This document shows, one piece after another, positions 1-50,915 of a stretch of DNA of 51,702 nucleotides. Both the position numbers and the translations under genes were made by a program. The stretch spans positions 1 to 51,702 of the forward strand of contig JAZSMV010000031.1 in NCBI GenBank assembly GCA_045536065.1, in the 5' to 3' direction. The stretch's first letter is position 1, and each line of letters starts with the position of its first letter. The stretch comes from Eubacteriales bacterium. Lineage in GTDB: Bacteria > Bacillota > Clostridia > Oscillospirales > CAG-272. Under the pieces are notes generated by a model. It was not told the DNA's origin. It made no database searches and worked only from the letters and a program-made list of their open reading frames with translations.

Positions 1-115
1 ATCCCATCATTTAAAATGAGTAAGGTCACTTGTAGACTACGAGTTTGATAGGTCGCAGATGTAAGTACAGTAATGTATTCAGTTGAGCGATACTAATAGA
101 CCGAGGGCTTGAACT
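1..115 (+). rRNA. rrl: 23S rRNA, 3' end (truncated by window)
   Basis: GTAGACTACGAGTTTGATAGG...GTAAGT...ATACTAATAGACCGAGGGCTTGA matches the conserved 3'-terminal 23S pattern; followed by TTGTTCGGTTTTCT (~181-194), like the 3' strand of the processing stalk. Mature end approximate. Confidence 0.9.
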
Positions 116-231
116 GTTGTCTTGATAAAGACTCAACAGAAGCAAGTTCGCACATTTCCTTGAGCTTCGTTTCTTATCCTTTGTTCGGTTTTCTATGGGC
201 ATTTGTCCAGAAAATAAATATATACCGATGT

Positions 232-307
232 GCACCTCTAGCTCAGTTGGTAGAGCAACTGACTCTTAATCAGTGGGTCCAGGGTTCGAGTCCCTGGAGG
301 TGCACCA
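232..307 (+). tRNA. tRNA-Lys (anticodon CTT)
   Basis: 76-nt cloverleaf: acceptor GCACCTC/GAGGTGC, anticodon loop CT-CTT-AA, GGTTCGAG T-loop, encoded CCA. Confidence 0.97.
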
Positions 308-313
308 CTTTAT

Positions 314-389
314 TCCTCGATAGCTCAGTCGGTAGAGCGCATGACTGTTAATCATGATGTCACTGGTTCGAGCCCAGTTCGGGGAGCCA
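314..389 (+). tRNA. tRNA-Asn (anticodon GTT)
   Basis: 76-nt cloverleaf: acceptor TCCTCGA/TCGGGGA, anticodon stem CATGA/TCATG with loop CT-GTT-AA, encoded CCA. Confidence 0.97.
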
Positions 390-390
390 T

Positions 391-425
391 AAGAGTCTTG
401 TCTTGTACAAGGCTCTTTTTCTTTT
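391..425 (+). terminator. Intrinsic terminator after rRNA/tRNA transcript
   Basis: AAGAGTCTTGT/ACAAGGCTCTT stem followed by T-run. Confidence 0.8.
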
Positions 426-435
426 ACTCGCTAAT

Positions 436-471
436 GGCTCGAACATACAGTGACACCAGCTTAACAGTCAT
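436..471 (-). repeat. Degenerate inverted copy of tRNA-Asn (anticodon arm to T-arm)
   Basis: GGCTCGAAC (436-444), CAGTGACA (448-455) and TTAACAGTCAT (461-471) are exact reverse complements of 366-374, 358-365 and 341-351, in collinear order. Confidence 0.85.
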
Positions 472-595
472 TGTTCGCTATGCGAACTGACTGTGAAAGG
501 GCGGCTCGGAATAAAAATATATCTGATTACACTTTATGTACTAATTGCAAATTTCATCTCCTCGCTTCGCCCAATACCGCAAGCGGTATGCATGA

Positions 596-628
596 GTCAC
601 TGGTTCGAGCCCAGTTCGGGGAGCCATA
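596..628 (+). repeat. 33-bp direct repeat of tRNA-Asn 3' end (att-like)
   Basis: GTCACTGGTTCGAGCCCAGTTCGGGGAGCCATA identical to 359-391. Confidence 0.95.
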
Positions 629-771
629 GTTCCATATCGCTTCATAAGTAATTTTTGATGCAAAGCGAGTAAAACAACTAAATGTTAAGAAAACGGGCGC
701 AATTTCCGTCCAGAATTGGTAGATATGTTTGCAAATATATGCTATAATTTGAGGCGTAAGGAGGTATAGAT

Positions 772-1737
772 ATGAATTTAGGAAATGAAATTCACGAGTT
801 AAGAAAAAAACACAATTTATCACAAGAACAACTCGCAGAGAAGGTTGGTGTTGCGAGGCAGACGATTTCAAAATGGGAATTAGGTGAGACAGCACCAGAT
901 ATTAAGCAAGCTCAGATGCTTTCACAGATTTTTAATGTAAGCTTAGACAAGATGCTTGGCAATGATACAAAGGAATCTGTTAATATCCCACATGATTGTA
1001 AAAAGAAAAATATTGCGCCTTGGAGAAAAATCATTGCAGCAAGTGCCGCAGTACTCATTCTGTGCTTAATTATAGTCGGTATATTTAATGTTGTTCAGAG
1101 ATCACAAATTTTACATCCGGAAGGGGTAGAAGGACAAGTTGTTATTACTAGAAAAGATCCTATCATAATCGAAAAAGGTAGTTCGGACACAATTGTATTT
1201 TGCGAGAATAGCAAGCCGACGATATTATGTGAATTACCGGAAGGTTTTGTTGCAGATGCAGAGAGAGCCGGATTCTATACAGATGGAAATGGAAATTTTA
1301 TCAAGTTTAATGCGGATTATTCAGATAATGTTATGAATCCACTCTTGGGAACAGATTATTATTCATATTATGAAGCCGACGGATATCATTCATATATGGA
1401 CATGGCTAGAGCTGCTATGTATTATGATTATCCAAGGCTCGGTATCTTTTCTTCAATAGAAAAACTGCATTTAGCTGGAGGAGCACAGCTTTTACGTGAA
1501 CAATTATGCGCAGGACAGGATGCAGATTATTATGAAATAAATGGCGGTTTAACAGAAGGCGGAGACACGATGCGAATTTATGGATTTGCGCTTCATTTTG
1601 ACAATACCACTTGGCTGATAACCTTAAATGATTGTAATGATGTTTATTATTATATAACAATAAAGGATCCAAACGGAATCGGAAAAACTATCGACACGGT
1701 TGGAGAACTATTGAGTACCATTACTATTGCTGAGTAA
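772..1737 (+). CDS. XRE-family HTH protein with one TM helix and C-terminal domain of unknown function
   Basis: LSQEQLAEKVGVARQTISKWE HTH; hydrophobic IIAASAAVLILCLIIVGIF; AGGAGG RBS; extended -10 TGcTATAAT at 740-748. Confidence 0.85.
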   Translation: MNLGNEIHELRKKHNLSQEQLAEKVGVARQTISKWELGETAPDIKQAQMLSQIFNVSLDKMLGNDTKESVNIPHDCKKKNIAPWRKIIAASAAVLILCLIIVGIFNVVQRSQILHPEGVEGQVVITRKDPIIIEKGSSDTIVFCENSKPTILCELPEGFVADAERAGFYTDGNGNFIKFNADYSDNVMNPLLGTDYYSYYEADGYHSYMDMARAAMYYDYPRLGIFSSIEKLHLAGGAQLLREQLCAGQDADYYEINGGLTEGGDTMRIYGFALHFDNTTWLITLNDCNDVYYYITIKDPNGIGKTIDTVGELLSTITIAE

Positions 1738-1749
1738 ATGGTTAGAGTT

Positions 1750-1782
1750 AAAAAACGAGCTTGAAAATCAAGCTCGTTTTTT
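1750..1782. terminator. Bidirectional intrinsic terminator
   Basis: AAAAAACGAGCTTGA-aaa-TCAAGCTCGTTTTTT between convergent genes. Confidence 0.9.
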
Positions 1783-2427
1783 CTATGATATATTTTGTTT
1801 AATTGCTTCCTCAACAATCTCGCCTATTATTCTCATTCCATCCTCGTCTGGATGAAGGCCGTCGAGCGTGTTCATATAATAAAAATCATTGTTCAATCGA
1901 CTATTATAAAGATCGGCAATGAAAAAGTTCTCTCCGGCTTCTTTTACAGCGTTTTCTATTGCCTCGTTAAACATTTCTGCACGTTTTTTTAGGAAAATAT
2001 CTCTGTCAGGCATATTTACGCAGCATACCTTTGCTAAGGGAAAAGCTTCCTTTATTATTATAAGGGCATGAGCGTAGTCCTCCGCAAATACATTGACATC
2101 AACTCCACGTCCAAGGTCGTTCATTCCCATAAAAAGAATGATAATATCAGGCTTCTCTCCTGAGTCACGTGACAGATGATTGGCACGGTTTAGGCCTGCT
2201 GATTCATCACTTCTGCCGCTGAGGTTACCGCCGGACCATGAGTTGTTTACACAGAGGTTAAGTTCAAGATCATTTATTATGCGCATCCAATAGGTTTTCT
2301 CAAGTGGAAAAGGCTCTTTGTAATAGCAGGGATTAACGAGAAGAGTAGAGTTGGCGGAGGCATCATCGGATACGCCTTGATATGAAGAAATGCTGTCGCC
2401 GAGAATTGAAACAAGCTTTTTTGACAT
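1783..2427 (-). CDS. SGNH/GDSL-family hydrolase
   Basis: GDSI block I, GMND block III, DGLHP block V. Confidence 0.9.
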   Translation of the reverse strand: MSKKLVSILGDSISSYQGVSDDASANSTLLVNPCYYKEPFPLEKTYWMRIINDLELNLCVNNSWSGGNLSGRSDESAGLNRANHLSRDSGEKPDIIILFMGMNDLGRGVDVNVFAEDYAHALIIIKEAFPLAKVCCVNMPDRDIFLKKRAEMFNEAIENAVKEAGENFFIADLYNSRLNNDFYYMNTLDGLHPDEDGMRIIGEIVEEAIKQNIS

Positions 2428-2462
2428 ATATTAAGTGCCCCTTTCGTTTAGTTTTCCTATTT

Positions 2463-2491
2463 ATTATACTTCTTTTGTTTGATTCAGTCAA
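2463..2491 (-). promoter_or_regulatory. sigmaA promoter of GDSL gene
   Basis: TTGACT-17-TATAAT on minus strand. Confidence 0.7.
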
Positions 2492-2528
2492 GTGCTTTTT
2501 GCCTTTGTATCCGTTTGGGTGAATTGAC

Positions 2529-2572
2529 TGTCAAAAGGCGTTATTGACAAAAGACGTATTAAGCTGTATAAT
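2529..2572 (+). promoter_or_regulatory. sigmaA promoter with overlapping palindrome
   Basis: TTGACA(2544)-17-TATAAT(2567); TGTCAA-N9-TTGACA inverted repeat at 2529-2549 overlaps the -35. Confidence 0.75.
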
Positions 2573-2620
2573 TGAGGCAAAGAAACGTTTCGATGATGCT
2601 AGACTAAAAGGAGAAAATGC

Positions 2621-3658
2621 ATGAAAATAGGAAATAAAATAAGGCAGATGAGAATTAAAGCTGGACTAACCCAGGAACAGCTGGCTTCGAAGCTCGGTGT
2701 TAGCGGTCAATCCGTGTCTAAGTGGGAGAATGAAATCACTATGCCTGACATCTCGCTTTTGCCCGATATTGCCGAGGCGTTTGGTATTAGTATCGACGAG
2801 CTGTTTGATCTTACGGTTGAGCAAAAGCTTAAGCGCATAGAGAACCGTATTGAAATTGAAACGGAAATTTCAGAGTCCTCGTTTAACGAATATGAGTCTT
2901 TTTTGAAAGAGCAGCTTTCTGAAAATTCCAATAGGGCAGAAGTTCTTTCGCTGCTTGCGAATCTTTATCATCACCGCATGGAATCTGACGGTTGCAAGGT
3001 AAGTAAATACTCGAGAGAAGCCATCCTTCTTAATCCTGCTAAAAAGGATTGTCAATGGTTGCTTACCAAAGCGGAAGGGCACGCCGTTTGGGATTGGAAT
3101 ATTGCAAATCATTCCGCTGCTATTGATTTTTACAAGGAGGTTATTGATGCAGATAAGATCACACCTAAAACGCCCCTTCCATACTACTATCTGATCGATA
3201 ATCTTCTGGCTGATAACAGAACCGCTGAGGCAGAGCAATATTTAAAGGTGATTGAAAAGCTTCCTTCGACAAATCCTGTGCTGATAATCGTTTATAGGGC
3301 GTATATTGCTCTTGCAGATCATAAGGTTGAGGTTGCGGATGAAATAATCTCAAGTTGCGCAAGAGAGAATCCCGATGATCCCGTATATCTTTTCGAAGCG
3401 GCGCAATATTATGCGAGAAAATGCGAATATGAAAAGGCTATCGATTATTACGAGCGTGCGTGGAAAAATGAGAAAAAGCCAAGGTACACCGACGCATTGC
3501 AGGGAATAGCAACAATACATAAAATTCTCGGTAACAAGAAAGCGGCGGCAGATGCTTATGACCGTATTTTGGGGTGCCTAGTGGAAGAATGGGGATATTC
3601 TAAAGAGGATAAGCCTTATATAGAAACAGAGCGTGAAAAATCGATTGCTATAAAATAA
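2621..3658 (+). CDS. XRE-family HTH regulator with C-terminal TPR-like repeats
   Basis: LTQEQLASKLGVSGQSVSKWE HTH; helical repeats such as YEKAIDYYERA and KAAADAYDRIL. Confidence 0.85.
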   Translation: MKIGNKIRQMRIKAGLTQEQLASKLGVSGQSVSKWENEITMPDISLLPDIAEAFGISIDELFDLTVEQKLKRIENRIEIETEISESSFNEYESFLKEQLSENSNRAEVLSLLANLYHHRMESDGCKVSKYSREAILLNPAKKDCQWLLTKAEGHAVWDWNIANHSAAIDFYKEVIDADKITPKTPLPYYYLIDNLLADNRTAEAEQYLKVIEKLPSTNPVLIIVYRAYIALADHKVEVADEIISSCARENPDDPVYLFEAAQYYARKCEYEKAIDYYERAWKNEKKPRYTDALQGIATIHKILGNKKAAADAYDRILGCLVEEWGYSKEDKPYIETEREKSIAIK

Positions 3659-3662
3659 TATA

Positions 3663-3688
3663 AAAAAGGCGGGTTTTCTCGCCTTTTT
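3663..3688 (+). terminator. Intrinsic terminator
   Basis: AAAAAGGCGGG-tttt-CTCGCCTTTTT. Confidence 0.8.
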
Positions 3689-3691
3689 CTA

Positions 3692-3741
3692 TTGACAAAC
3701 TCCTGTTCGTATGTTATAATAAGCTAACGAACTCCTGTTCG
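3692..3741 (+). promoter_or_regulatory. Consensus sigmaA promoter with two LexA (Cheo-type) boxes
   Basis: TTGACA-17-TATAAT with TG extension; CAAACTCCTGTTCG (3696-3709) and perfect CGAAC-N4-GTTCG (3728-3741). Confidence 0.9.
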
Positions 3742-3769
3742 CCCCCACGAAAAATTAAGGAGATTTATT

Positions 3770-4414
3770 ATGAGACCTAAAAATGACGAGAGAAAAATGG
3801 AGGTTTATCGCTTCGTTACCGATTTTATGAAGGAGCGTGGCGTTTGCCCTACCACCCAGGAGATTGGCGATACGCTTGGAATGGCTAAATCCACTGTTTC
3901 AAAGTATATGAACAGACTTATGGATGACGGGCTTATTGAGAAATACGGCAGATATCAGACTGTTGTTGCCGATTCGCCTGTTCTTCCTTCAGATTACGTT
4001 ATGATGCCGGTTGTTGGCTCTATTGCTTGCGGTCAGCCTGTTCTTGCAATCGAAGAGGTTGAGGAATATATTCCTATTAACGTTGGTCTGCTCGGTTATG
4101 GCGAATATTTCGGACTTATTGCCCGTGGCGATTCTATGATCGAGGCAGGAATCAATGACGGAGATACCGTGTACGTTCGTAAGCAGAATACCGCTATCGA
4201 CGGTGAGATCGTTGTTGCTATGGTTGAGGATGAATTTTCTGACGGATGGAGCGCAACACTTAAGAGGTTTTACCGTGATATGAAGAACGGCAGATATATT
4301 CTTCATCCCGAGAATCCTACTCTTGATGACATAGTGGTCGACAAGGTACACGTTGTTGGCGTGGCTGTACGAGTGCTTAAGAATCTTGAAGCGAGCAAGA
4401 GAAGATTTTGCTAA
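3770..4414 (+). CDS. lexA: LexA-family repressor (S24 autopeptidase)
   Basis: N-terminal HTH, IACGQP cleavage loop, GDSM serine, TLKRF lysine; autoregulatory boxes upstream. May be a paralog. Confidence 0.85.
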   Translation: MRPKNDERKMEVYRFVTDFMKERGVCPTTQEIGDTLGMAKSTVSKYMNRLMDDGLIEKYGRYQTVVADSPVLPSDYVMMPVVGSIACGQPVLAIEEVEEYIPINVGLLGYGEYFGLIARGDSMIEAGINDGDTVYVRKQNTAIDGEIVVAMVEDEFSDGWSATLKRFYRDMKNGRYILHPENPTLDDIVVDKVHVVGVAVRVLKNLEASKRRFC

Positions 4415-4440
4415 AAATAAAAATGGAGGGTAAATTATTT

Positions 4441-6468
4441 ATGAAAAGAATTTTGGCCCTGGTTACAATTATTTTTGTATGTCTTCTGATCACAGGCTGT
4501 GAGCTTTTGTTTGGAGGATATGAGGAACACACCTGCGCCTTTACCGATTGGGAAGTCGTCGAGGAGGCAACCTGCGAGGATGCAGGTGAGGAGGAACGAT
4601 ATTGCGTAATATGTTACGAAACAGAAACACGTACCGTTCCAAAGCTTTCACACACTCCTGCAGATTATGAGGCGATAGCTCCCACCTGCACCGAAAAGGG
4701 AAGCACTGCGGGTAAATATTGCTCGGAGTGTATGGTTATTCTTTCGGGCATTGAGGAGCTTGAGGCTACCGGACATAAGGAGGTTATTGATCCTGCAATT
4801 CCTGTTACCGATGATGCTCCCGGAAGGACCGAGGGTAAGCATTGCTCCACCTGCGGCGAGATCCTGGTAAAGCAGCTTTCTATATTCTCGGGAAATTATT
4901 CTAATCCTGAAAAGTATCACGGGGACTATGCCTACGAGTCGCTTCTGCTTCTTACAAACGGCGAGGAAATGGCTGAGTTCTACCGTGAGATTGACCTTGC
5001 TGCCGCTGAATTCCATTCTTCGCTTAACGATGCTCAAACGAAGAAAAATGGCGGAAACGATATTTATTATATGGCAGAAATATGCTATTCGGATAATGGA
5101 ATAACAGGCGAGGAGGCGATCTCCGCCTGGTGCGCCTATGTAAAGGATCATCCTCTTTATTATTGGATGTCCTCAAAGCTTACATATTCCGATCAGCAGA
5201 TTACTATTATTGTAGATGACGAGTATATTGACGGGGATGTGCGTGAGCAGATCAATGCCGATATATATAATGCCGTTGAGGAGTATATACTTTCGCTTGA
5301 GGGTGAGGGCAGTGCTTATGGCATCACTCTTGGATTCCATGATGTGATAATCAAAAATGCCGATTATGCTTACGAAGCGGACGGTGTAACTCCCTCCGAT
5401 AAGAATTCTGCCCATAATATTCTTGGAGTGCTTCTTGAGGGCGAGGGCGTTTGCGAATCCTATGCAAAGGCATTCCAGCTTTTACTTAACTATTGCGGTA
5501 TCGAAAACATTTTCGTTACAGGATATTCGGGTGAAAACCACGCCTGGAACCTTGTTCAGCTTGATGACGGTCAGTGGTATTGGTACGATCTTACCTGGGA
5601 TGATCAGCCCTCAAGAATGATGGGAGTTCGGCACAACTATTTCTGTGTTACCGATGATTCTATCGTTGATTGGTATGACGGTGGAATTGAGGGTGACACC
5701 GCATTTATCGAGGATCACACTCCCAATGCTGCGGGTGGCACCGGGGTAAACTATACCTATGAGCTTCCCGAGCGTGCAGATAGTCCCTATGATTATGACG
5801 GTTTGATGCTTCGTGATGAGATTATTATGCAGAGCGGCCTTTCCTACGTTCTTGTAGGCTTTAAGTCGCTTGCTCTTATTAAGATCGAGGCAGAGGGAGA
5901 TGTTGTTATTCCCGAGATGCTTACCTACGGTGGCGACGAATATTCCGTTGTCGCAATCGGTAGCTATGATGAGGAGAACGGACTGCTTGGCTCGGGTTCA
6001 ATTATTGATTATGATTCAACAAATAGGGTACACCTTGACGTGACCGCTATAAGCATTCCCGAAAAGGTTGAGTTCATCTGGGATTTTGCATTCGATAAGT
6101 GCTATACTATTGAGAGCTATACTGTTAACGAAAACAATCAGCATTTTGCTTCTCTTGACGGAGTTCTTTTCACAAAGTCGCTTTATACCTTGGTTAAGTA
6201 TCCTCTTGCGAAGAATCTGAGCTCTTATACCGTACCCGAGGCAACCGTTGAGATCGCCTTTAATGCCTTCGGCGACGGTGGAAACGTATTCTGTCCCGAG
6301 TATCTTGACACTCTTACAATTCCTTCAAACGTAGAGGTTATCGGCGCAACGGGAGGAAACCGTGGCTTCCGTAATGCACGACCCGACAAGCCTTCTGAGG
6401 TCACTATGATCGCAGGCTATGAGGAAAGACTGGTTTCTATGTTAGGCTTTGGCCTCAGAATTGAATGA
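4441..6468 (+). CDS. Lipoprotein with Cys/His repeats, transglutaminase-like domain and BspA-type LRR region
   Basis: Lipobox LITGC; repeated (A/P)TC..G..CxxC..H units; GVCESYA/HAWN/YDLTWDD; IPEKVEFIWDFAF..DGVLF LRR. Start moved to ATG 4441 (GGAGG RBS). Confidence 0.8.
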   Translation: MKRILALVTIIFVCLLITGCELLFGGYEEHTCAFTDWEVVEEATCEDAGEEERYCVICYETETRTVPKLSHTPADYEAIAPTCTEKGSTAGKYCSECMVILSGIEELEATGHKEVIDPAIPVTDDAPGRTEGKHCSTCGEILVKQLSIFSGNYSNPEKYHGDYAYESLLLLTNGEEMAEFYREIDLAAAEFHSSLNDAQTKKNGGNDIYYMAEICYSDNGITGEEAISAWCAYVKDHPLYYWMSSKLTYSDQQITIIVDDEYIDGDVREQINADIYNAVEEYILSLEGEGSAYGITLGFHDVIIKNADYAYEADGVTPSDKNSAHNILGVLLEGEGVCESYAKAFQLLLNYCGIENIFVTGYSGENHAWNLVQLDDGQWYWYDLTWDDQPSRMMGVRHNYFCVTDDSIVDWYDGGIEGDTAFIEDHTPNAAGGTGVNYTYELPERADSPYDYDGLMLRDEIIMQSGLSYVLVGFKSLALIKIEAEGDVVIPEMLTYGGDEYSVVAIGSYDEENGLLGSGSIIDYDSTNRVHLDVTAISIPEKVEFIWDFAFDKCYTIESYTVNENNQHFASLDGVLFTKSLYTLVKYPLAKNLSSYTVPEATVEIAFNAFGDGGNVFCPEYLDTLTIPSNVEVIGATGGNRGFRNARPDKPSEVTMIAGYEERLVSMLGFGLRIE

Positions 6469-6482
6469 TATTCTTAAAAATT

Positions 6483-6517
6483 AAAAGCAGATTGCCACCG
6501 GGCAATCTGCTTTTTTT
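6483..6517. terminator. Bidirectional intrinsic terminator
   Basis: AAAAGCAGATTGCC-accg-GGCAATCTGCTTTT. Confidence 0.9.
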
Positions 6518-7061
6518 ATAGCTCTATCCAGAATCTTTTAAAATATGCCTTCTCGTCAGGCTCGAAAATCGTTGATTCGTATACACCACCGCAGGAAAGA
6601 ATAGTCTTTTCGCTTGCTATGTTCGTATCATAGCAGGTTATGAGCACACGGTCAAGCCCGAGATCACGGCAGAAGGCAAGCGCCTCTGTTAGCATCTGCT
6701 TTGCATATCCCTTACGTCTTTCGCTGGGTCTTACCGAATAACCGATGTGACCGCCGAATTTTGATAGGTAGTCATTAAAGTAATGCCTTATCTGAAGCAG
6801 ACCTAAAAGTCGGCGCTCATCCTCCGAAACAAGCATAAGCTGTGTAGCGGGGACACGTCCCTCATATATGCGATCCTTTGCCATAGTCTCAAGGCTCTCG
6901 CAGTTTATACTCCATTCGACGTATTCATAGGGGTCGTCGATCCTGCGAAGGGCACCGCAGCCATCCATAGAATCTCCCGCATCAATAAACTCATCTTTAT
7001 ATGCTTTTATTTCATCGGCATAATCTGCCGATATTTTCATAAGTTTTATATTCTGCCTCAA
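6516..7061 (-). CDS. GNAT-family acetyltransferase
   Basis: GHIGYSVRPSERRKGYAK acetyl-CoA motif, NIASEKTI; TTG start with AGGAG RBS. Confidence 0.9.
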   Translation of the reverse strand: MRQNIKLMKISADYADEIKAYKDEFIDAGDSMDGCGALRRIDDPYEYVEWSINCESLETMAKDRIYEGRVPATQLMLVSEDERRLLGLLQIRHYFNDYLSKFGGHIGYSVRPSERRKGYAKQMLTEALAFCRDLGLDRVLITCYDTNIASEKTILSCGGVYESTIFEPDEKAYFKRFWIEL

Positions 7062-7062
7062 A

Positions 7063-7830
7063 TTAAATCTCCTTTACCAACTCTTTGCATATCTCTATCA
7101 TTGAGTATCGAATACTTCCTCTGTCACGCCAACGCCTTGAATCCCAGGTGCTGCCGGATACGTCGTCCCCACCGTAGATCAGGGCGCCGTATTTGATTTT
7201 GCGGAATTCTGCTACTGCAAGGCAGCCCGCCTGTTCCATTTCAACTATCCGTGCTCCCTCCTCCTTGCGCAGAGCAATTCTGTCCTTGGTCTCACGGTAG
7301 AAGGCATCTGTGGTCCATACGATTCCACAGGTGTAGGGAATTCCGTGGCTTTCCAGGTAACTGCAAATCACCTCACGCACGCCCGCTTCTGAATACACTA
7401 TTCTTGAGGGCTCAAGGTAGTGATAGGAAAAGCCCTCGTCACGAATTGCACCCTCAACCACAAGCAGCTCACCGACACCGATATTCTTGTCAAGCACTCC
7501 ACCGCCACCGCAGAACATGACCTTACTAATTCCGCATCCGGTCAGCTCGTCAAGATATCCGCCCGTTGCCGCACAGCCGATTATTCCGTGCATAAGAAGC
7601 ACGCCATCGTCTACAAACTTGTAGAGCACAAGGTCGTTTTCGCCTTTAATTACCTTATGTACTTCTATTTTACCCTCGTCAAGCAGAGTGTTGATCGCTT
7701 CCTTGAAAAAGCTGATTATCAGCTTGTCCGTTTCTAATTTACCGTGCACCTCGCCGAACATCTGCGGAGTTATCAGCGCACTTTTATCATCATCAAATTC
7801 AAGTATTGGAAACTCGTTTTTTCTAATCAT
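7063..7830 (-). CDS. Nucleoside phosphorylase (PNP/UDP family)
   Basis: RDEG, WTTDAFYRET, VEME motifs; start set at MIRKNEF. Confidence 0.88.
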   Translation of the reverse strand: MIRKNEFPILEFDDDKSALITPQMFGEVHGKLETDKLIISFFKEAINTLLDEGKIEVHKVIKGENDLVLYKFVDDGVLLMHGIIGCAATGGYLDELTGCGISKVMFCGGGGVLDKNIGVGELLVVEGAIRDEGFSYHYLEPSRIVYSEAGVREVICSYLESHGIPYTCGIVWTTDAFYRETKDRIALRKEEGARIVEMEQAGCLAVAEFRKIKYGALIYGGDDVSGSTWDSRRWRDRGSIRYSMIEICKELVKEI

Positions 7831-7843
7831 TCCGTTTTCTCTC

Positions 7844-8917
7844 CTAGTAACACAAAAATTCATCTACCGAACTAAAGCGCCAGCTATCGAACTGCGAGGG
7901 CTTCTTTGAAAAGAGAGCCTCGTATTCCTTCATCAGCGTTTTTACTCTGTAATTCTTACATTTTACGGTGATTTCATCCTCGGTCATCTCAATGCGGCAA
8001 TCAAGCTTTCGCTTCATAAAGGCAAGCGTATTGCTAAGCCTGCTCGAGAGTATTTCCTCGGCATCCGAGGTCCTGCCTTTGCTGATTATAGCCTCCAGCT
8101 TGGGTTTAACCTGTAAAAGTCGGCACCAGAATTCCTCATAGCCCGATCTGTCCTGTTTTGTTTCGCAATAGTGCGGATCGGTTCCGTTGGTGATAGCTGT
8201 TATCATCGGATCAAGATGTTCTCTGTAGAAGCTGTTAAGTCCTTCTGCCAGCCCCCGTGCCTCATCCTCCTTGCCAAGAACGGCAAATAACACAGCCTTT
8301 ACGTAGTTGCGCTGGGAATTTTCGGACGGATCATATTGCTCGGAAATCTTCAAAAAGGCTTCGCTATCATTATATTGATGCATAACCATATATAGCGTTG
8401 CTATATCGTAGATGATCTTGCTGACTGTTGATTTCTGGCTTTCATCGGGTACCGTTCCATCATAGAACTCAAGCGCTTTTTTGTAGTAATAAATCGCCTT
8501 ACTGCACTCAGAATCTCTTTGGGCGAATTTTGCAGTTCTGTAATAGGGGTGGAAGGCAAAGGGGAAGGAAAGTGAAACGGTACAGTTCTTTAGTCTTTCG
8601 TAATACTCACACATTTCGGTCTCCTTGGCAAGCATTTCAAAATTCAGTCCTTTAAAATAGATCACCACAGCCTCGTCAAAGTCGTTTACACATATCTTCT
8701 CCAGAATATCAAGCTTGGGGCAGGCGGCAGCAAAATTACGGCTGCAGATATTAATAAGCGCAGCAGTAAGATGAATTTGTGCCTCGGGATTATCTGCGAA
8801 TGCAGAGGAAAAGGTTTTGCCAAAAACTTTAGTATGCTCCATGCGCCACTTTTTGTAGTTCTTATCGTTCAGTGCATACTGCATTAATAGGTTATCAAAA
8901 TCATTGCTTTCGTGCAT
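7844..8917 (-). CDS. TPR-like helical repeat protein of unknown function
   Basis: KAIYYYKKALE-type repeats; ATG at 8917 with AGGAGG RBS; TTGATT-17-TATAAT at 9039-9011. Confidence 0.7.
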   Translation of the reverse strand: MHESNDFDNLLMQYALNDKNYKKWRMEHTKVFGKTFSSAFADNPEAQIHLTAALINICSRNFAAACPKLDILEKICVNDFDEAVVIYFKGLNFEMLAKETEMCEYYERLKNCTVSLSFPFAFHPYYRTAKFAQRDSECSKAIYYYKKALEFYDGTVPDESQKSTVSKIIYDIATLYMVMHQYNDSEAFLKISEQYDPSENSQRNYVKAVLFAVLGKEDEARGLAEGLNSFYREHLDPMITAITNGTDPHYCETKQDRSGYEEFWCRLLQVKPKLEAIISKGRTSDAEEILSSRLSNTLAFMKRKLDCRIEMTEDEITVKCKNYRVKTLMKEYEALFSKKPSQFDSWRFSSVDEFLCY

Positions 8918-9179
8918 ACTAAAGCCTCCTCCGCACTCGGAACCGACTGCTATTTGATCGACACACCAAAGATTGTTCGGGCAATCCGTTCCAAAAAAAT
9001 CTTTTTTAAAATTATATACCAAACACCAAAAAAAATCAAGGGATAAAAACAAAATAGATGAATCTGCTATATTTCAAACATAATATAGGGCAGAATGGCA
9101 TTTGGACTTCGCTGTGTGATTGCGGGCACGAAGTTGTTAAAAAAAGAAAGTAATGCCTTTGCCTTTTTTTAAAACCCCC

Positions 9180-9208
9180 TTGCAAAAATTGCTCAAATAT
9201 GGTACAAT
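9180..9208 (+). promoter_or_regulatory. sigmaA promoter heading the AraC-dxs-miaB operon
   Basis: TTGCAA-17-TACAAT with TG extension. Confidence 0.7.
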
Positions 9209-9249
9209 AATATGAAATATTATTGAAATTTGAAGGGAGGCTTACGTAG

Positions 9250-10050
9250 GTGAAAAACGGATATGAGATTTTCAGCGAGAATATTGCTATAAAGTATCTT
9301 TCCGCCGACGAGGGACGTGAGGGCTTTTGCGGCGATCACTGCCACGATAAATATGAGATCACCTATCTGCAATCGGCCTCCGGAAGGTATATAGTCGAGG
9401 GCTGTGAGCATAAAATAACCAGTGGAACTCTTATTTTTATACCTCCTATGTCCTATCACAAGGTAGAGCTTTCGCCCGACGTTTTAGCCGAGGGCTATAC
9501 CGTTCACTTCCGACGTGAAGCGGTAAGCGGAGCGGTTGACGCTATGTTTGATAAGATCTGTGCAGACGGTGAAGGCCACGGCAGATTTTATCCTGGCGAG
9601 CAGGTATGCGAGGCGCTTATCTCGGCATTTGACAGATTTGAGATGGCTGAAAGGCTTAAGGAGAATGAGCGTGACGCTTATATGCAGACGCTTCTTGCTG
9701 AAATAATCATACTTCTCTCGGCAACAGAGGGCAAGCAAATTACGGTAGATGAGGATGAGATAGGCGCAAGGGTTGGAAGATTTTTAAATGCAAATTTCAG
9801 GAAAAATATCAGCCTTGACCGTCTTGCCCGCAGGTTTTTCGTTAGCAAGTATTATCTCTGTCGAGCCTTTAAGAGCTACAGTGGAATATCGATCCACGCA
9901 TATATCAATCAAAAACGTATCATCTATGCCAAGGGACTTATTGAGTCAGGCATGACCGCATCAAATGCGGCGGAAAAGGTGGGCTTTGGCGACTATTCGG
10001 CGTTTTACAGAGCCTACGTAAAGATCGTGGGGAAATCTCCCACGGCATAA
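9250..10050 (+). CDS. AraC-family regulator (cupin + double HTH)
   Basis: HCHDKYE cupin motif; VSKYYLCRAFK and VGFGDYSAFYRAYVK HTHs. Confidence 0.92.
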   Translation: MKNGYEIFSENIAIKYLSADEGREGFCGDHCHDKYEITYLQSASGRYIVEGCEHKITSGTLIFIPPMSYHKVELSPDVLAEGYTVHFRREAVSGAVDAMFDKICADGEGHGRFYPGEQVCEALISAFDRFEMAERLKENERDAYMQTLLAEIIILLSATEGKQITVDEDEIGARVGRFLNANFRKNISLDRLARRFFVSKYYLCRAFKSYSGISIHAYINQKRIIYAKGLIESGMTASNAAEKVGFGDYSAFYRAYVKIVGKSPTA

Positions 10051-10071
10051 ATTTTTGGAAAGGAGCAGGGT

Positions 10072-11928
10072 ATGAAGTATTCGTTGCTCGACGGCATCAA
10101 TTCGCCGTCCGATCTTAAAAAACTGAATAAATCAGATATCCCGACTCTTTCCTCAGAGATCAGAGATTTTCTTATTGAGAATGCCAAGGAACACGGCGGA
10201 CATCTGGCATCAAATCTTGGTGTTGTTGAGCTTACCCTGGCGATTCATACGGTGTTTGATTCACCGAAGGATCATATTGTTTTCGACGTTGGGCATCAGT
10301 CCTACGTTCATAAGCTGTTGACCGGCAGACGAGAGGCCTTTGATACGCTTCGTATTCCCGGCGGTCTTTCTGGCTTTACCTCTATGAAGGAGAGCGAGCA
10401 CGACGCCTTTGGCTCCGGCCATTCGTCAAACTCCATATCCGCCGCACTCGGTATTGCACGATCGGATAACCTCTCGGGAAATACCTGTCATACCGTCTGT
10501 GTGACGGGCGACGGTGCTTTTACCGGCGGAATGGCTCACGAGGCGCTTAATAATTGCCCGAAAAAGCTTCCTCTCGTTATTATTCTCAACGAGAACGGTA
10601 TGTCAATATCCTCCACTAAGGGCGCATTTGCATCCTACGTTTCCCACGTTAGAGTGTCGCCCGGATATGCAAAATTCAAGACAAATACCAAGAACTTTCT
10701 TGACAAGCTTCCTCTCATCGGCAAGCCTATTCGCTTCCTGCTCAGATGCATAAAGCGTGCTATCAAAAAGCTGGTTTACAAGCCAAATTACTTTGAGGAG
10801 CTTGGACTTTACTATATCGGCCCTATCGACGGCCACGATTATAATGCTGTTTGCAAGGCTCTGACTCTTGCAAAGCAGTCGGGTAAGACCTGCGTCGTTC
10901 ACGTTAAGACGGTTAAGGGCAAGGGATACGAGCCTGCGGAGAGCTCGCCCGACGGATATCACAGCTTTAATTCCGCATCTCCCGAGGGAGGCTTTGGCAA
11001 AAGCTTTGCCGACGAGCTGATAGCGATGGCAGAGAAGAATGACAAGATAGTCGGCATAACCGCCGCTATGGGTATCGGTACGGGACTTGACCGCTTTGGC
11101 AAGGTATACACCGACAGATATTTCGACGTAGGTATTGCCGAGGCTCATGCGCTTACCTTTGCCGCAGGCCTTGCAAGAGGCGGTCATATTCCTTTCGTTG
11201 CGCTTTATTCCACCTTCCTGCAGAGAGGCTATGACAGTCTGCTTCACGACGTTGCACTCCAGAATCTGCCGGTTAAGATTATGATCGACCGTGCAGGTCT
11301 CGCTCTCGGTGACGGCGCAACCCACCACGGCATATTTGACGTGTCCTTTATCTCGCATATTCCCAATATGACGCTTCTCGCACCTGCAAGTTTCGCTTCG
11401 CTTCGTGAGATGATGCACTTTGCAGAGGGGCATGACGGTCCTGTTGCTATCCGTTATCCCAATGCCAAGGAGCCTATATGCCTGAACAGGTTTAGATCCA
11501 TCTCGGATTCTCCGACCTGTAAGATCAGCGTTGACTATGATACACAGAATACTCCCGAGCATCTGTTTATTACCTACGGCTCGCTTGTTGACAGAGTGAA
11601 GTCTGCGACTGATATTCTCAAAAAGCAGGGAATAGCTGTGGGCATAATACTTATTGAGAGCTTAAAGCCCTATGGCCCTGTGGCAGAGGAATTAATTAAG
11701 CTTATTTTTCCCGCAAAGCGTGTTGTCTTTGCCGAGGAGGGAATCAAGAGCGGCGGCGCTGCTGAGCTTTGCCGTGAGGAGCTTATGCTCCGTGGCCTTG
11801 ATATACTAAAGACAGAATATAGAATTGCCGCCATAGAGGATAATTTCGCCTCTCCTTCTGAGATGTGTGACCTCTATGACTACGTAGGCCTTTCGGCAGA
11901 AAAGCTTGCGAAAAAAATGAAAGACTAA
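10072..11928 (+). CDS. dxs: 1-deoxy-D-xylulose-5-phosphate synthase
   Basis: GGHLASNLG, DVGHQ, GDGA..GMA.EALN TPP motif, DVGIAE, DRAG. Confidence 0.96.
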   Translation: MKYSLLDGINSPSDLKKLNKSDIPTLSSEIRDFLIENAKEHGGHLASNLGVVELTLAIHTVFDSPKDHIVFDVGHQSYVHKLLTGRREAFDTLRIPGGLSGFTSMKESEHDAFGSGHSSNSISAALGIARSDNLSGNTCHTVCVTGDGAFTGGMAHEALNNCPKKLPLVIILNENGMSISSTKGAFASYVSHVRVSPGYAKFKTNTKNFLDKLPLIGKPIRFLLRCIKRAIKKLVYKPNYFEELGLYYIGPIDGHDYNAVCKALTLAKQSGKTCVVHVKTVKGKGYEPAESSPDGYHSFNSASPEGGFGKSFADELIAMAEKNDKIVGITAAMGIGTGLDRFGKVYTDRYFDVGIAEAHALTFAAGLARGGHIPFVALYSTFLQRGYDSLLHDVALQNLPVKIMIDRAGLALGDGATHHGIFDVSFISHIPNMTLLAPASFASLREMMHFAEGHDGPVAIRYPNAKEPICLNRFRSISDSPTCKISVDYDTQNTPEHLFITYGSLVDRVKSATDILKKQGIAVGIILIESLKPYGPVAEELIKLIFPAKRVVFAEEGIKSGGAAELCREELMLRGLDILKTEYRIAAIEDNFASPSEMCDLYDYVGLSAEKLAKKMKD

Positions 11929-11945
11929 AAAAAGGAGGGAGTAAT

Positions 11946-13328
11946 ATGATCCACAGCATAAATGAAATAAACGTGAGAGAATACATCTCCCTCGTTAAAA
12001 AAATAAACGACGGCGCAAAAAAATACGCCCACGTTATCACCTTTGGCTGTCAGCAGAACGAGAGGGATAGCGAGACCGTAATGGGTCTGCTCTGCGAGAT
12101 GGGATACACTCCTACGGACAATCCCGATATTGCTGACGTTATTATCATCAATACCTGCGCTATAAGAGAGCACGCCGAGGTAAAGGCGCTTTCGCTTCTC
12201 GGCAGATTCAAGGCGCAGAAAAAACGCAATCCCGACCTTATTGTCGGCGTGGTTGGCTGTATGGCGGCCGAGCCTCATAGGGCAGAAATGCTTAAGACCG
12301 ATTTTCATTACGTCACCTTTACTCTTGAACCTAATATGCTTCACCGCATACCCGAGCTTATTGCACGTAAGCTTACAGACGGAAAGCGAAGCTTTATATT
12401 CGGTCAGGACGGCGGTGATATTTATGAGGATACCCCTGCGGTAAGACGTGAGAGACACAGAGCCTGGGTGTCCATAATGTACGGATGTAACAATTTCTGC
12501 TCCTACTGTATTGTTCCATACGTGAGGGGCAGGGAGCGAAGCCGATTAAGTGATGATATACTTGCGGAGTGCCGAGAGCTTGTTGCTTCGGGCGTCCGTG
12601 AGATAACTCTCCTCGGTCAGAACGTTAATTCCTACAAGGCAGACCTTACTTTCCCTGAGCTTTTGTCAAGAATTGCCGAGATTGAGGGCGACTTTATCAT
12701 CAGATTTATGACCAGTCACCCCAAGGACACCTCTACGGAATTAGTAGAGGTAATGAGGCGGCATAATCCTAAGATTGCGCCCTTCTTCCACCTGCCTCTG
12801 CAGTCGGGAAGCAACCGCATACTTAAGGAGATGAACCGCACCTATACCAGAGAGCGATATCTTGCGATAGTGGACGAGCTTCGTGCGAATATCCCGAACA
12901 TCGCACTTTCCACCGACGTAATTATCGGCTTCCCAAGTGAGACCGACGAAGATTTTGCCGACACGATGGATATTCTTCGCAGGGTGGAGTTTGACAACGT
13001 GTACGCATTCCTTTATTCTCCGAGAGAGGGAACAAGGGCGGCCAAGATGGACGGTGCCGTTGACCGATCGGTAAAGGACGTGCGAATGGCAGAGCTTCTT
13101 TCTATGCAGGACTCCATTTCTCTTGAAAAAAATAAGCCTTATGAAAATACTATACAGAGAGTGCTGACCGATTCCTTTGAAACAAAGAACGGCAAGCGTA
13201 TCCTATCCGGCAGAACGCTTACCAATAAGCTGGTATACTTTGAGTCGGATGCGCCCATAGGCGAGTTTATTAATGTGAAAATAACCAAGGCCTGCCCCTA
13301 TCATCTTATGGGCGAGGCGGAAAAGTGA
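11946..13328 (+). CDS. miaB: tRNA-i6A37 methylthiotransferase MiaB
   Basis: TFGCQQN, NTCAIRE, CNNFCSYC radical-SAM motif, C-terminal TRAM-like region. Confidence 0.95.
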   Translation: MIHSINEINVREYISLVKKINDGAKKYAHVITFGCQQNERDSETVMGLLCEMGYTPTDNPDIADVIIINTCAIREHAEVKALSLLGRFKAQKKRNPDLIVGVVGCMAAEPHRAEMLKTDFHYVTFTLEPNMLHRIPELIARKLTDGKRSFIFGQDGGDIYEDTPAVRRERHRAWVSIMYGCNNFCSYCIVPYVRGRERSRLSDDILAECRELVASGVREITLLGQNVNSYKADLTFPELLSRIAEIEGDFIIRFMTSHPKDTSTELVEVMRRHNPKIAPFFHLPLQSGSNRILKEMNRTYTRERYLAIVDELRANIPNIALSTDVIIGFPSETDEDFADTMDILRRVEFDNVYAFLYSPREGTRAAKMDGAVDRSVKDVRMAELLSMQDSISLEKNKPYENTIQRVLTDSFETKNGKRILSGRTLTNKLVYFESDAPIGEFINVKITKACPYHLMGEAEK

Positions 13329-50832: not shown

Positions 50833-50915
50833 GCGGGTATGGCGGAATTGGCAGACGCGCCAGACTTAGGATCTGGTGTTTACACGTGCAGGTTCGACTC
50901 CTGTTACCCGCACCA
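50833..50915 (+). tRNA. tRNA-Leu (anticodon TAG)
   Basis: 83 nt, acceptor GCGGGTA/TACCCGC, anticodon stem CCAGA/TCTGG with loop CT-TAG-GA, variable arm, encoded CCA. Confidence 0.97.

Follow-up and report, generated by a model that had tools for sequence, protein, structure and literature searches.

A tRNA-linked repeat unit behind tRNA-Asn in a CAG-272 genome: anatomy, relatives, and a possible origin by duplication and inversion at hairpins

Here, we report on a structured repeat that lies behind a transfer RNA (tRNA) gene in a 51,702-nucleotide (nt) stretch of DNA from a Eubacteriales bacterium of the CAG-272 lineage (GenBank assembly GCA_045536065.1, contig JAZSMV010000031.1, positions 1 to 51,702 of the forward strand). 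The whole stretch is called the window below, and the assembly that holds it (G000) comprises 1.77 Mb in 131 contigs and is 83% complete. The window begins in the 3' end of a 23S ribosomal RNA (rRNA) gene, which is followed by tRNA-Lys and tRNA-Asn; the element is at the distal end of this rRNA operon and, counted from position 392, stands directly behind the tRNA-Asn gene. It is one unit of a repeat family and no one-off scar. Its two arms are copies of the adjacent tRNA gene, one inverted and one direct, and they enclose a folded interior. By architecture, not by descent, the unit belongs to the class of tRNA-linked repeats (TLRs) known from Escherichia coli. Its anatomy, the tandem arrays, the exchange of interiors, and the tracking of the neighboring tRNA by the arms are directly visible in the sequences. 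As to its origin, we lean toward DNA-level duplication and inversion at hairpins, and the alternatives are weighed below.

Anatomy of the unit behind tRNA-Asn

The order of gene plus unit is direct-inverted-direct; the first turn lies at a terminator hairpin and the second at a 31-nt hairpin (Table 1). Three perfect and collinear blocks of the left arm are antisense to tRNA-Asn: 436-444 against 366-374 (9 nt), 448-455 against 358-365 (8 nt, within an 11-nt arm at 91% identity), and 461-471 against 341-351 (11 nt). A further inverted pair lies at 384-393/431-440 (90%). Read along the unit, the left arm starts with the CCA end joined to the T loop and continues through the variable loop and the anticodon arm to the 3' strand of the D stem; it covers about 45 nt of the tRNA and is continuous and decayed (up to 71 nt in relatives). 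When tRNA-Asn was aligned locally with its own downstream DNA, the inverted score was 15.0, and 434 controls, which paired other tRNAs of the genome with unrelated downstream regions, had a 99th percentile of 12.5 and a maximum of 13.5. The inverted copy is thus beyond chance, because its score exceeds the control maximum.

The direct copy of tRNA-Asn is made up of 481-497 and 591-628 and reaches from the D stem as far as the gene's 3' end; a 92-nt structured insert (498-589) splits it where the anticodon loop ends. Its distal part includes a perfect 33-nt direct repeat (359-391 = 596-628), for which 0 of 100 shuffles gave two matches, and with one gap the repeat lengthens to 39 nt (353-391 against 591-628), i.e., back to tRNA position 40. 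Both the inverted and the direct copy carry bases beyond CCA; therefore, the template was the gene (DNA) and not the mature tRNA.

The far end of the unit is a further pairing partner of the 5' arm, through 436-444/603-611 (9 nt, 100%) and 448-454/596-602, and the internal hairpins are formed by 464-470/488-494 together with 473-478/482-487, by 499-503/568-572, and by 574-589. A preliminary description of this DNA, made from its letters, had listed the antisense blocks, the far-end pairing, and the internal hairpins, and all of them are present in the sequence; the GCAA-tetraloop hairpin is real too, though it had been placed one base off, at 575-590. The multi-stem fold proposed there is predicted for both strands, with -64.3 kcal/mol (z -3.46) for the + strand and -72.5 kcal/mol (z -5.48) for the - strand.

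Table 1. Features of the operon end and of the tRNA-linked unit (window coordinates)
Feature	Position	Strand	Basis or remark
23S rRNA 3' end	1-117	+	Rfam LSU_rRNA_bacteria, 78.8 bits, model positions 2811-2925
tRNA-Lys(CTT)	232-307	+	ARAGORN; Rfam tRNA 72.7 bits
tRNA-Asn(GTT), gene copied by both arms	314-389	+	ARAGORN; Rfam tRNA 68.5 bits
33-nt direct repeat, first copy: variable loop, T arm and 3' strand of the acceptor, CCA, and two flanking bases	359-391	+	
Intrinsic-terminator-like hairpin (391-417), then T run	391-426	+	At the apex of the palindrome made by the 3' part of the tRNA and the left arm
Left arm, inverted decayed partial tRNA-Asn copy	431-478	+	Repeat comparison; local alignment
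Hairpin where the inverted and direct copies meet head to head, centre 479-481	464-494	+	
Direct decayed copy, first part (from the 3' strand of the D stem to the anticodon loop)	481-497	+	Direct repeat family 485-497
Type A structured module, closing stem 499-503/568-572	498-573	+	
Conserved hairpin with variable loop	574-589	+	Common to the contig C9 copy and the dispersed family
Right arm, direct copy of tRNA-Asn nt 40-76 and two flanking bases	591-628	+	
14-nt inverted repeat, 93% identity	419-432 and 664-677		Strand not assigned

The 14-nt inverted repeat of Table 1 brackets the whole unit together with 35 nt of downstream flank, and it is not seen around the units of other species. Upstream, the interval 118-231 is without a 5S rRNA gene, and the operon order is 23S rRNA, tRNA-Lys, tRNA-Asn. 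A tRNA-like fold of the right half of the unit, suggested by acceptor-like words at 557-563, was dropped, as it is not kept in relatives. In positions 1-13,328 of the window, the genes are for XRE regulators, a GDSL lipase, LexA, and housekeeping enzymes, and no recombinase, IS110, TnpB, Y1-HUH, or reverse-transcriptase gene was found among them. The downstream XRE gene is not linked to the unit; its orthologues adjoin other tRNAs in two genomes (G155 and G005).

Relatives at tRNA-Asn and the same layout at other tRNAs

The assembly contains a second copy on contig C9, behind the other tRNA-Asn gene. The left part of this copy is 99% identical to that of the window copy, the middle differs, the last hairpin is the same, and a decayed tRNA 3' end plus a duplicate of the terminator close the copy. 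Of 200 other genomes in the genus, 41 have a match to the left 67 nt (E ≤ 0.01), and of 16 genomes from other families of the order, none has. Please note that a tRNA-Asn resembling that of the window is assembled in only 55 of the 200 genomes, 26 of which belong to the 41. In the loci that were fetched, 51 copies were seen, nearly all of them behind tRNA-Asn or an Asn/Lys pair and at contig ends, and the whole unit was located only behind tRNA-Asn or tRNA-Lys. Tandem arrays of two to five units are frequent, e.g., five units in G096 and three each in G007 and G137. For 28 tRNA-Asn loci of the genus, 200 nt or more are available downstream; of these loci, 20 have the inverted copy (score ≥ 14), 17 the direct copy, and 14 both; the inverted copy mostly begins 34-56 nt past the gene and spans tRNA nt 28-62 in most loci and nt 4-74 or 2-62 in three, and at locus L120 tRNA nt 12-61 are inverted at +47 to +101 past the gene. 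Loci of tRNA-Asn that had been missed by the first search nevertheless carry such copies. The preliminary description had argued that a simple attachment-site (att) scar would not explain the element; the homologues at the second tRNA-Asn and across the genus agree with it and speak against a one-off event too.

This one scaffold holds several interiors: type A in the window, type B on contig C9, small hairpins in G007, and almost nothing in G020. Some copies hold another module at the T-loop position, and one module is found in either orientation. In decayed right arms, the acceptor-3'/CCA part is kept better than the T arm. Junctions in the T loop recur, as in an Asn/Lys chimera (L022) and in the same break at two further loci (L025 and L027). 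The type A interior is also found away from tRNAs: its part at 526-589 is 73-80% identical to at least 13 dispersed copies in the same assembly, and 11 of 13 such copies at non-tRNA sites adjoin heptamer runs, in comparison with 1.9% of random sites. Tandem 7-nt repeats are seen on both sides of the dispersed modules (contigs C125, C107, C42, C104, C128, C85, C5, C131, and C6), a fixed 21-nt word precedes the modules, and many of them lie at contig ends.

The layout is not confined to tRNA-Asn. At many other tRNAs of the assembly, including Leu-CAG, Gly-GCC, Cys, Ser-GCT, Ser-GGA, Glu, both Gln, Tyr, Trp, and Asp, the tRNA's own 3' part is inverted after the terminator, and its own 3' end is found again in direct orientation 100-250 nt further on. 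When each tRNA was scored against its own downstream DNA, the score exceeded the 99th percentile of the 434 control pairings for the inverted copy in 5, for the direct copy in 8, and for both in 3 of 22 tRNAs, with a chance expectation of about 0.2 each; the test took 22 of the 37 tRNAs of the assembly, the 15 with less than 150 nt free downstream being excluded. The window's tRNA-Leu(TAG) (50833-50915) is without a linked repeat (inverted score 5.0, direct 6.5). For the element at tRNA-Ser(GCT), an orthologous empty site was sought, and the flank was matched in 0 of 120 genomes.

A second core, which we call module G and which was first met behind tRNA-Asp, matches 118 of the 200 genus genomes and allows the relation between arms and tRNA to be counted. 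Altogether 35 copies were found, and for 30 of them a tRNA was called at most 120 nt upstream (Asp, Val, Gly, Leu-CAG, Trp, Met, and one Leu-CAA). In 28 of the 30 copies, versus 0 of 180 controls, the right arm agrees with the adjacent tRNA at 15/16 positions or more; for the left arm, complementarity of 9/10 or better is seen in 15 of the 30 copies versus 29 of 180 controls, the Asp copies matching at 8/10 only; the control rate of the left arm is high because T loops are common to different tRNAs. The right arms always begin at T-loop position 55/56. Module G lies inside tRNA operons, in the interval from tRNA-Asp to tRNA-Gly, without a terminator and, therefore, must be transcribed in the tRNA sense. 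In all, the arms track the adjacent tRNA and the core is shared, i.e., the key test named in the preliminary description, that the antisense arm should follow the identity of its neighbor, came out positive in elements of the same layout elsewhere.

The module G copy behind tRNA-Leu(CAA) (L095, contig C283 of G058) has two arms that fit another tRNA 3' end (right 12/16, left 6/10), and it may be a displaced or transferred unit. Within module G, there is an invariant asymmetric internal loop (columns 22-31 and 51-56 of its alignment, A2) with tandem G-A/A-G positions beside a G-C stem, which resembles a kink-turn. The centre of module G is seen once more in a different setting. The assembly has three small DUF559 nuclease genes within inverted structured ends (C104:6400-6640, C21:51500-52450, and C21:54150-55100); inside the left end of the C104 cassette lie two tandem hairpin-module copies and, after them, a third related unit whose hairpin differs, and the repeated hairpin is the centre of module G. 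The DUF559 nuclease was tried as a driver and rejected: its gene is present in 23 of the 41 genomes with the tRNA-Asn element and in 75 of the 159 without it (p 0.38), presence of the gene is associated with neither element (odds 1.3-1.5, p 0.15-0.39, across 200 genomes that are not independent), and the strict DUF559-end motif was found within 260 nt of only 2 of the 13 dispersed type A copies.

Conservation of the fold and origin of the units

The fold was examined on the 22 full-length type A copies that could be aligned (A1) out of the 51 seen; the remaining 29 (12 type B and 17 truncated, minimal, or with another core) are outside the pair count. RNAalifold predicted 29 pairs on A1, eight of them with compensatory changes, and the structure drawn in the preliminary description, taken together with the long-range arms (45 pairs), is 88.4% paired. 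The covariation score of 0.176 compares with 0.103 in shuffles, none of 500 reaching 0.176, and with 0.03-0.08 when the partners were slid; the aligned copies are mutually related, so that the shuffle figure is no probability. In helix 3 (the 464-494 hairpin), 90.6% of the cells are paired and one pair is UA in 10 copies and CG in 8, in helix 4 (the closing stem of the insert) both sides have changed in 6 of 10 pairs, and helix 5 (574-589) is 94.7% paired. Module G behaves alike, with 17 predicted pairs in 34 aligned copies (one copy with an insertion was left out), nine of them with compensatory changes. The internal stems do covary, as the preliminary description had anticipated. Rfam 15 gave no match in 390-640 (E up to 1), in the second copy, in the dispersed copies, or in the other tRNA-linked elements; a hammerhead or other ribozyme was set aside, there being no such match.

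On balance, we favor, with some reserve, that the window's 431-628 is a tRNA-linked repeat unit which arose when DNA was duplicated and inverted at hairpins. Template switching at short inverted repeats is expected to give such a product, direct-inverted-direct in order and with a hairpin at each turn. Gene conversion with the tRNA gene could subsequently keep the direct arm identical to it, and the inverted arm could be held complementary by intrastrand, quasipalindrome-type correction in the palindrome. Recombination between the 33-nt repeats (the tRNA 3' end and its copy), or slippage there, might add and remove units, and small hairpin modules would insert into, or swap at, loop positions of the pseudo-tRNA. 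The interiors behave as small hairpin repeats; the type A core is dispersed and mostly found beside heptamer runs. No dedicated enzyme would be needed for any of these steps. Judging from its position, the unit probably receives transcripts that read through the terminator, as do E. coli TLRs.

Several observations weigh against such an origin. Covarying stems and conserved loop bases across many species mean selection on a folded single strand, RNA or DNA, which one would not expect of a neutral rearrangement scar. The spacing between the terminator stem and the inverted arm is 17 nt, versus 2 nt on the other side, so that the palindrome is no clean fold-back. One core at seven tRNA identities needs a transfer mechanism beyond template switching, and the recurrent T-loop junctions, together with the constant start of the module G right arms at 55/56, look site-specific; a neutral scar accounts for neither the shared core nor these junctions. 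Template switching, gene conversion, and unit turnover are steps that we infer from structure. In addition, the enzyme searches ran on an assembly that is 83% complete, and the enzymes concerned are not found rather than absent: matches to the IS110 transposase (PF01548), TnpB, Y1-HUH/RAYT, or reverse transcriptase were not found, nor was a gene with the 'Recombinase' domain of large serine recombinases, and the one small resolvase and the four tyrosine recombinases (Phage_integrase) are all on other contigs.

Alternatively, the unit may encode a processed small RNA on the rRNA/tRNA operon, which we regard as possible though doubtful. Its arms would zip into a T-arm/acceptor mimic ending in CCA, its core would bind a protein, and tRNA-maturation enzymes would excise and stabilize the mimic, as for E. 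coli RrA/RrB/RrF and RttR. The unit stands behind a terminator where an rRNA operon ends, and rrB is placed likewise (PMC8144298); both cores have covarying stems and conserved loop bases; and the better preservation of the acceptor-3'/CCA part in decayed right arms fits a mimic of this kind, as does the location of module G within terminator-free tRNA operons. The wobble evidence, however, is split. In module G, read on the tRNA-sense strand, G-T cells (6 minor and 32 conserved) outnumber A-C cells (1), which favors that strand; in the internal helices of the window element, read on the + strand, there are 20 A-C versus 5 minor G-T, which favors the opposite strand, and it is also the - strand that folds better. 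Nor do the transcription signals of the unit speak for an RNA gene of its own: a promoter scan of it gave nothing beyond chance on either strand, and no second terminator follows the window's copy. Free swapping of cores and a module that occurs in either orientation would be unusual for an RNA gene, and no Rfam family was matched.

It is improbable, in our view, that the unit is a scar or decoy attachment site of tRNA-Asn islands, where the old 3' end of the gene was displaced downstream, deletion of the island left a remnant, and the palindrome is a symmetrized recombinase half-site. Direct repeats of the tRNA 3' end on both sides of the insert are what such a scar would have, and islands do use this site: G007 has a 4.1-kb island at the same place, after the pseudo 3' end of the second unit, and the left-end sequence of that island stands directly after the true tRNA-Asn in G066. 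In G010, an unannotated open reading frame (ORF) ends just before a tRNA-Asn fragment that begins in the D arm. Against a scar, the 204 bp between the 33-nt repeats hold no gene remnant (the sole overlapping ORF is without a Pfam match), the unit structure is kept across 41 genomes, the layout recurs at many tRNAs with shared cores, and no Recombinase-domain gene was found in the window's assembly.

Two of these loci deserve a separate description. Within the G007 island, between two units, positions 1294-3063 of locus L100 (contig C58) encode a 589-aa protein with ParB_N, Recombinase, and Zn_ribbon_recom domains, in which ParB_N stands in place of the resolvase catalytic domain. At locus L010 (G010, contig C71), the ORF at 1-510 is without a recombinase-domain Pfam match and ends about 25 nt before the tRNA-Asn fragment; this looks like another element integrated inside the gene, approximately where the inverted and direct copies of the window meet.

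A mobile cassette is very improbable as an explanation: here the arms would pair into a duplex copy of the tRNA T-arm region that serves as a folded single-strand attachment site, and a recombinase or nuclease would swap strands in the T loop, each unit of an array being one cassette. Unit boundaries in the T loop (module G elements and several Asn units), arrays of two to five units, and arms that vary with the target around a kept structured centre are what one would expect of cassettes, and the order of an inverse-core-like and a core-like word around a variable centre resembles that of attC; yet no enzyme was found, the four tyrosine recombinases of the assembly being on other contigs and the DUF559 genes unassociated, and the repeat of the window begins at the anticodon stem and not at the T loop. 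Contigs of four public runs, compared with 150-1000 of the window, gave short exact pieces over 366-486 and 473-743, and no clean joint across the unit, empty-site junction, or circle junction; the joints seen have short sides or unknown inserts and may derive from relatives, and such contigs carry no strand or end information. A broader version, in which the units are cassettes of a novel system that inserts at tRNA T loops, each restoring the displaced 3' end and having attC-like arms, is quite improbable as well. If true, it would explain one core with re-matched arms at seven or more different tRNAs and would supply a mechanism for the E. coli TLRs.

Comparison with known repeats and mobile elements

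The units share with IS110 bridge RNAs, integron attC sites, and the attP hairpin of CTX phage the general trait of a target-matched, self-folding nucleic acid. The preliminary description suggested, as one of two readings, a guide RNA by analogy with IS110-family elements. This analogy is not borne out: the arm is a long decayed inverted gene copy (nt 4-74 in relatives) without short guide loops, in contrast to bridge RNAs, which have two internal loops with short bipartite guides to target and donor and are encoded at the end of an element with a DEDD (IS110) transposase gene, and no gene for IS110, TnpB, Y1-HUH, or reverse transcriptase turned up in the 83%-complete assembly. The integron attC and CTX attP sites differ in that no integrase is adjacent here; the words of our arms end in AAC and begin with GTT, as do the attC core sites (RYYYAAC/GTTRRRY), and appear to differ from them at other positions.

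[quoted passage not shown] The likeness is an analogy only, since here tens of bases rather than kilobases are involved, in a bacterium and at many tRNAs, with no origin taking part. Scars of the attL/attR type share the tRNA 3' direct repeat on both sides, and islands of relatives occupy the same site; they differ from the present element in its 204 gene-free bp, inverted tRNA copy, conserved folded cores, and occurrence at many tRNAs.

Repetitive extragenic palindromic (REP) sequences, bacterial interspersed mosaic elements (BIMEs), and MITEs, short for miniature inverted-repeat transposable elements, resemble our units in being gene-less hairpin mosaics with compensatory stem changes, one module occurring at 13 or more sites. 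On the other hand, each whole unit of ours goes with a single gene, which its arms copy, the flanking repeat consists of at least 33 nt of tRNA instead of a short fixed target duplication, and no RAYT/Y1 gene was found in the assembly. The label of a REP- or MITE-like element with target-derived ends, used in the preliminary description, is therefore a fair description as far as it goes, and the strict definition of a MITE (terminal inverted repeats, a short target duplication of fixed length, copies at unrelated sites) does not apply, given that no such short duplication is present and only the inner type A module, not the whole unit, is dispersed.

The closest class is that of the TLRs. According to PMC8144298, E. 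coli K-12 has 22 TLRs at ten loci, with one to five per locus, in tRNA/rRNA operons, and their last 18-19 bp reproduce exactly the 3' end of the adjacent upstream gene; they were described by Egan and Landy in 1978 and catalogued by Rudd in 1999, as cited there. Three of them lie between two rRNA-operon terminators, with read-through transcription and in vitro binding of Hfq and CsrA, and the class has no accepted origin or function (PMC8144298). A preprint that mentions rttR reports raised mobilome coverage of the tyrT region and no circles. We found that the 178-nt TLR unit of tyrV in E. coli K-12 has an inverted T-arm copy (17/20), so that an antisense copy of the host tRNA occurs in the known class as well. 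In sequence, this unit and the window's assembly are not similar (blastn, best 28.3 bits, with a shuffle mean of 29.0).

Much of what matters here can be pursued within the genus itself, which offers hundreds of units, at least 13 tRNA genes with them per genome, and more than 100 species, and which makes the formation, mobility, and small-RNA status of such repeats open to comparison and sequencing. The units also account for pseudo-tRNA fragments, for contig breaks near tRNA/rRNA genes, and for false 'att sites' in island prediction.

In their architecture, the present units and the E. coli TLRs agree on most counts. Both stand directly behind a tRNA or rRNA gene in an operon, in one to five tandem units of about 150-240 bp and at several genes per genome; in both, the end of the unit is identical over at least 18-19 bp to the 3' end of the upstream gene (33 nt here); and rrB, between two terminators, has a comparable position. 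The word 'undescribed' in the preliminary description is thus too strong, given that the architecture fits repeats first described in 1978 and catalogued in 1999 (as cited in PMC8144298). The differences are that the identity is longer in the window element (33-39 nt), that the inverted copy is much longer (nt 4-74 in relatives), and that the interiors here are interchangeable covarying hairpin modules common with dispersed repeats. The Clostridial element is a richer variant of the tRNA-linked repeats and not a wholly undescribed kind.

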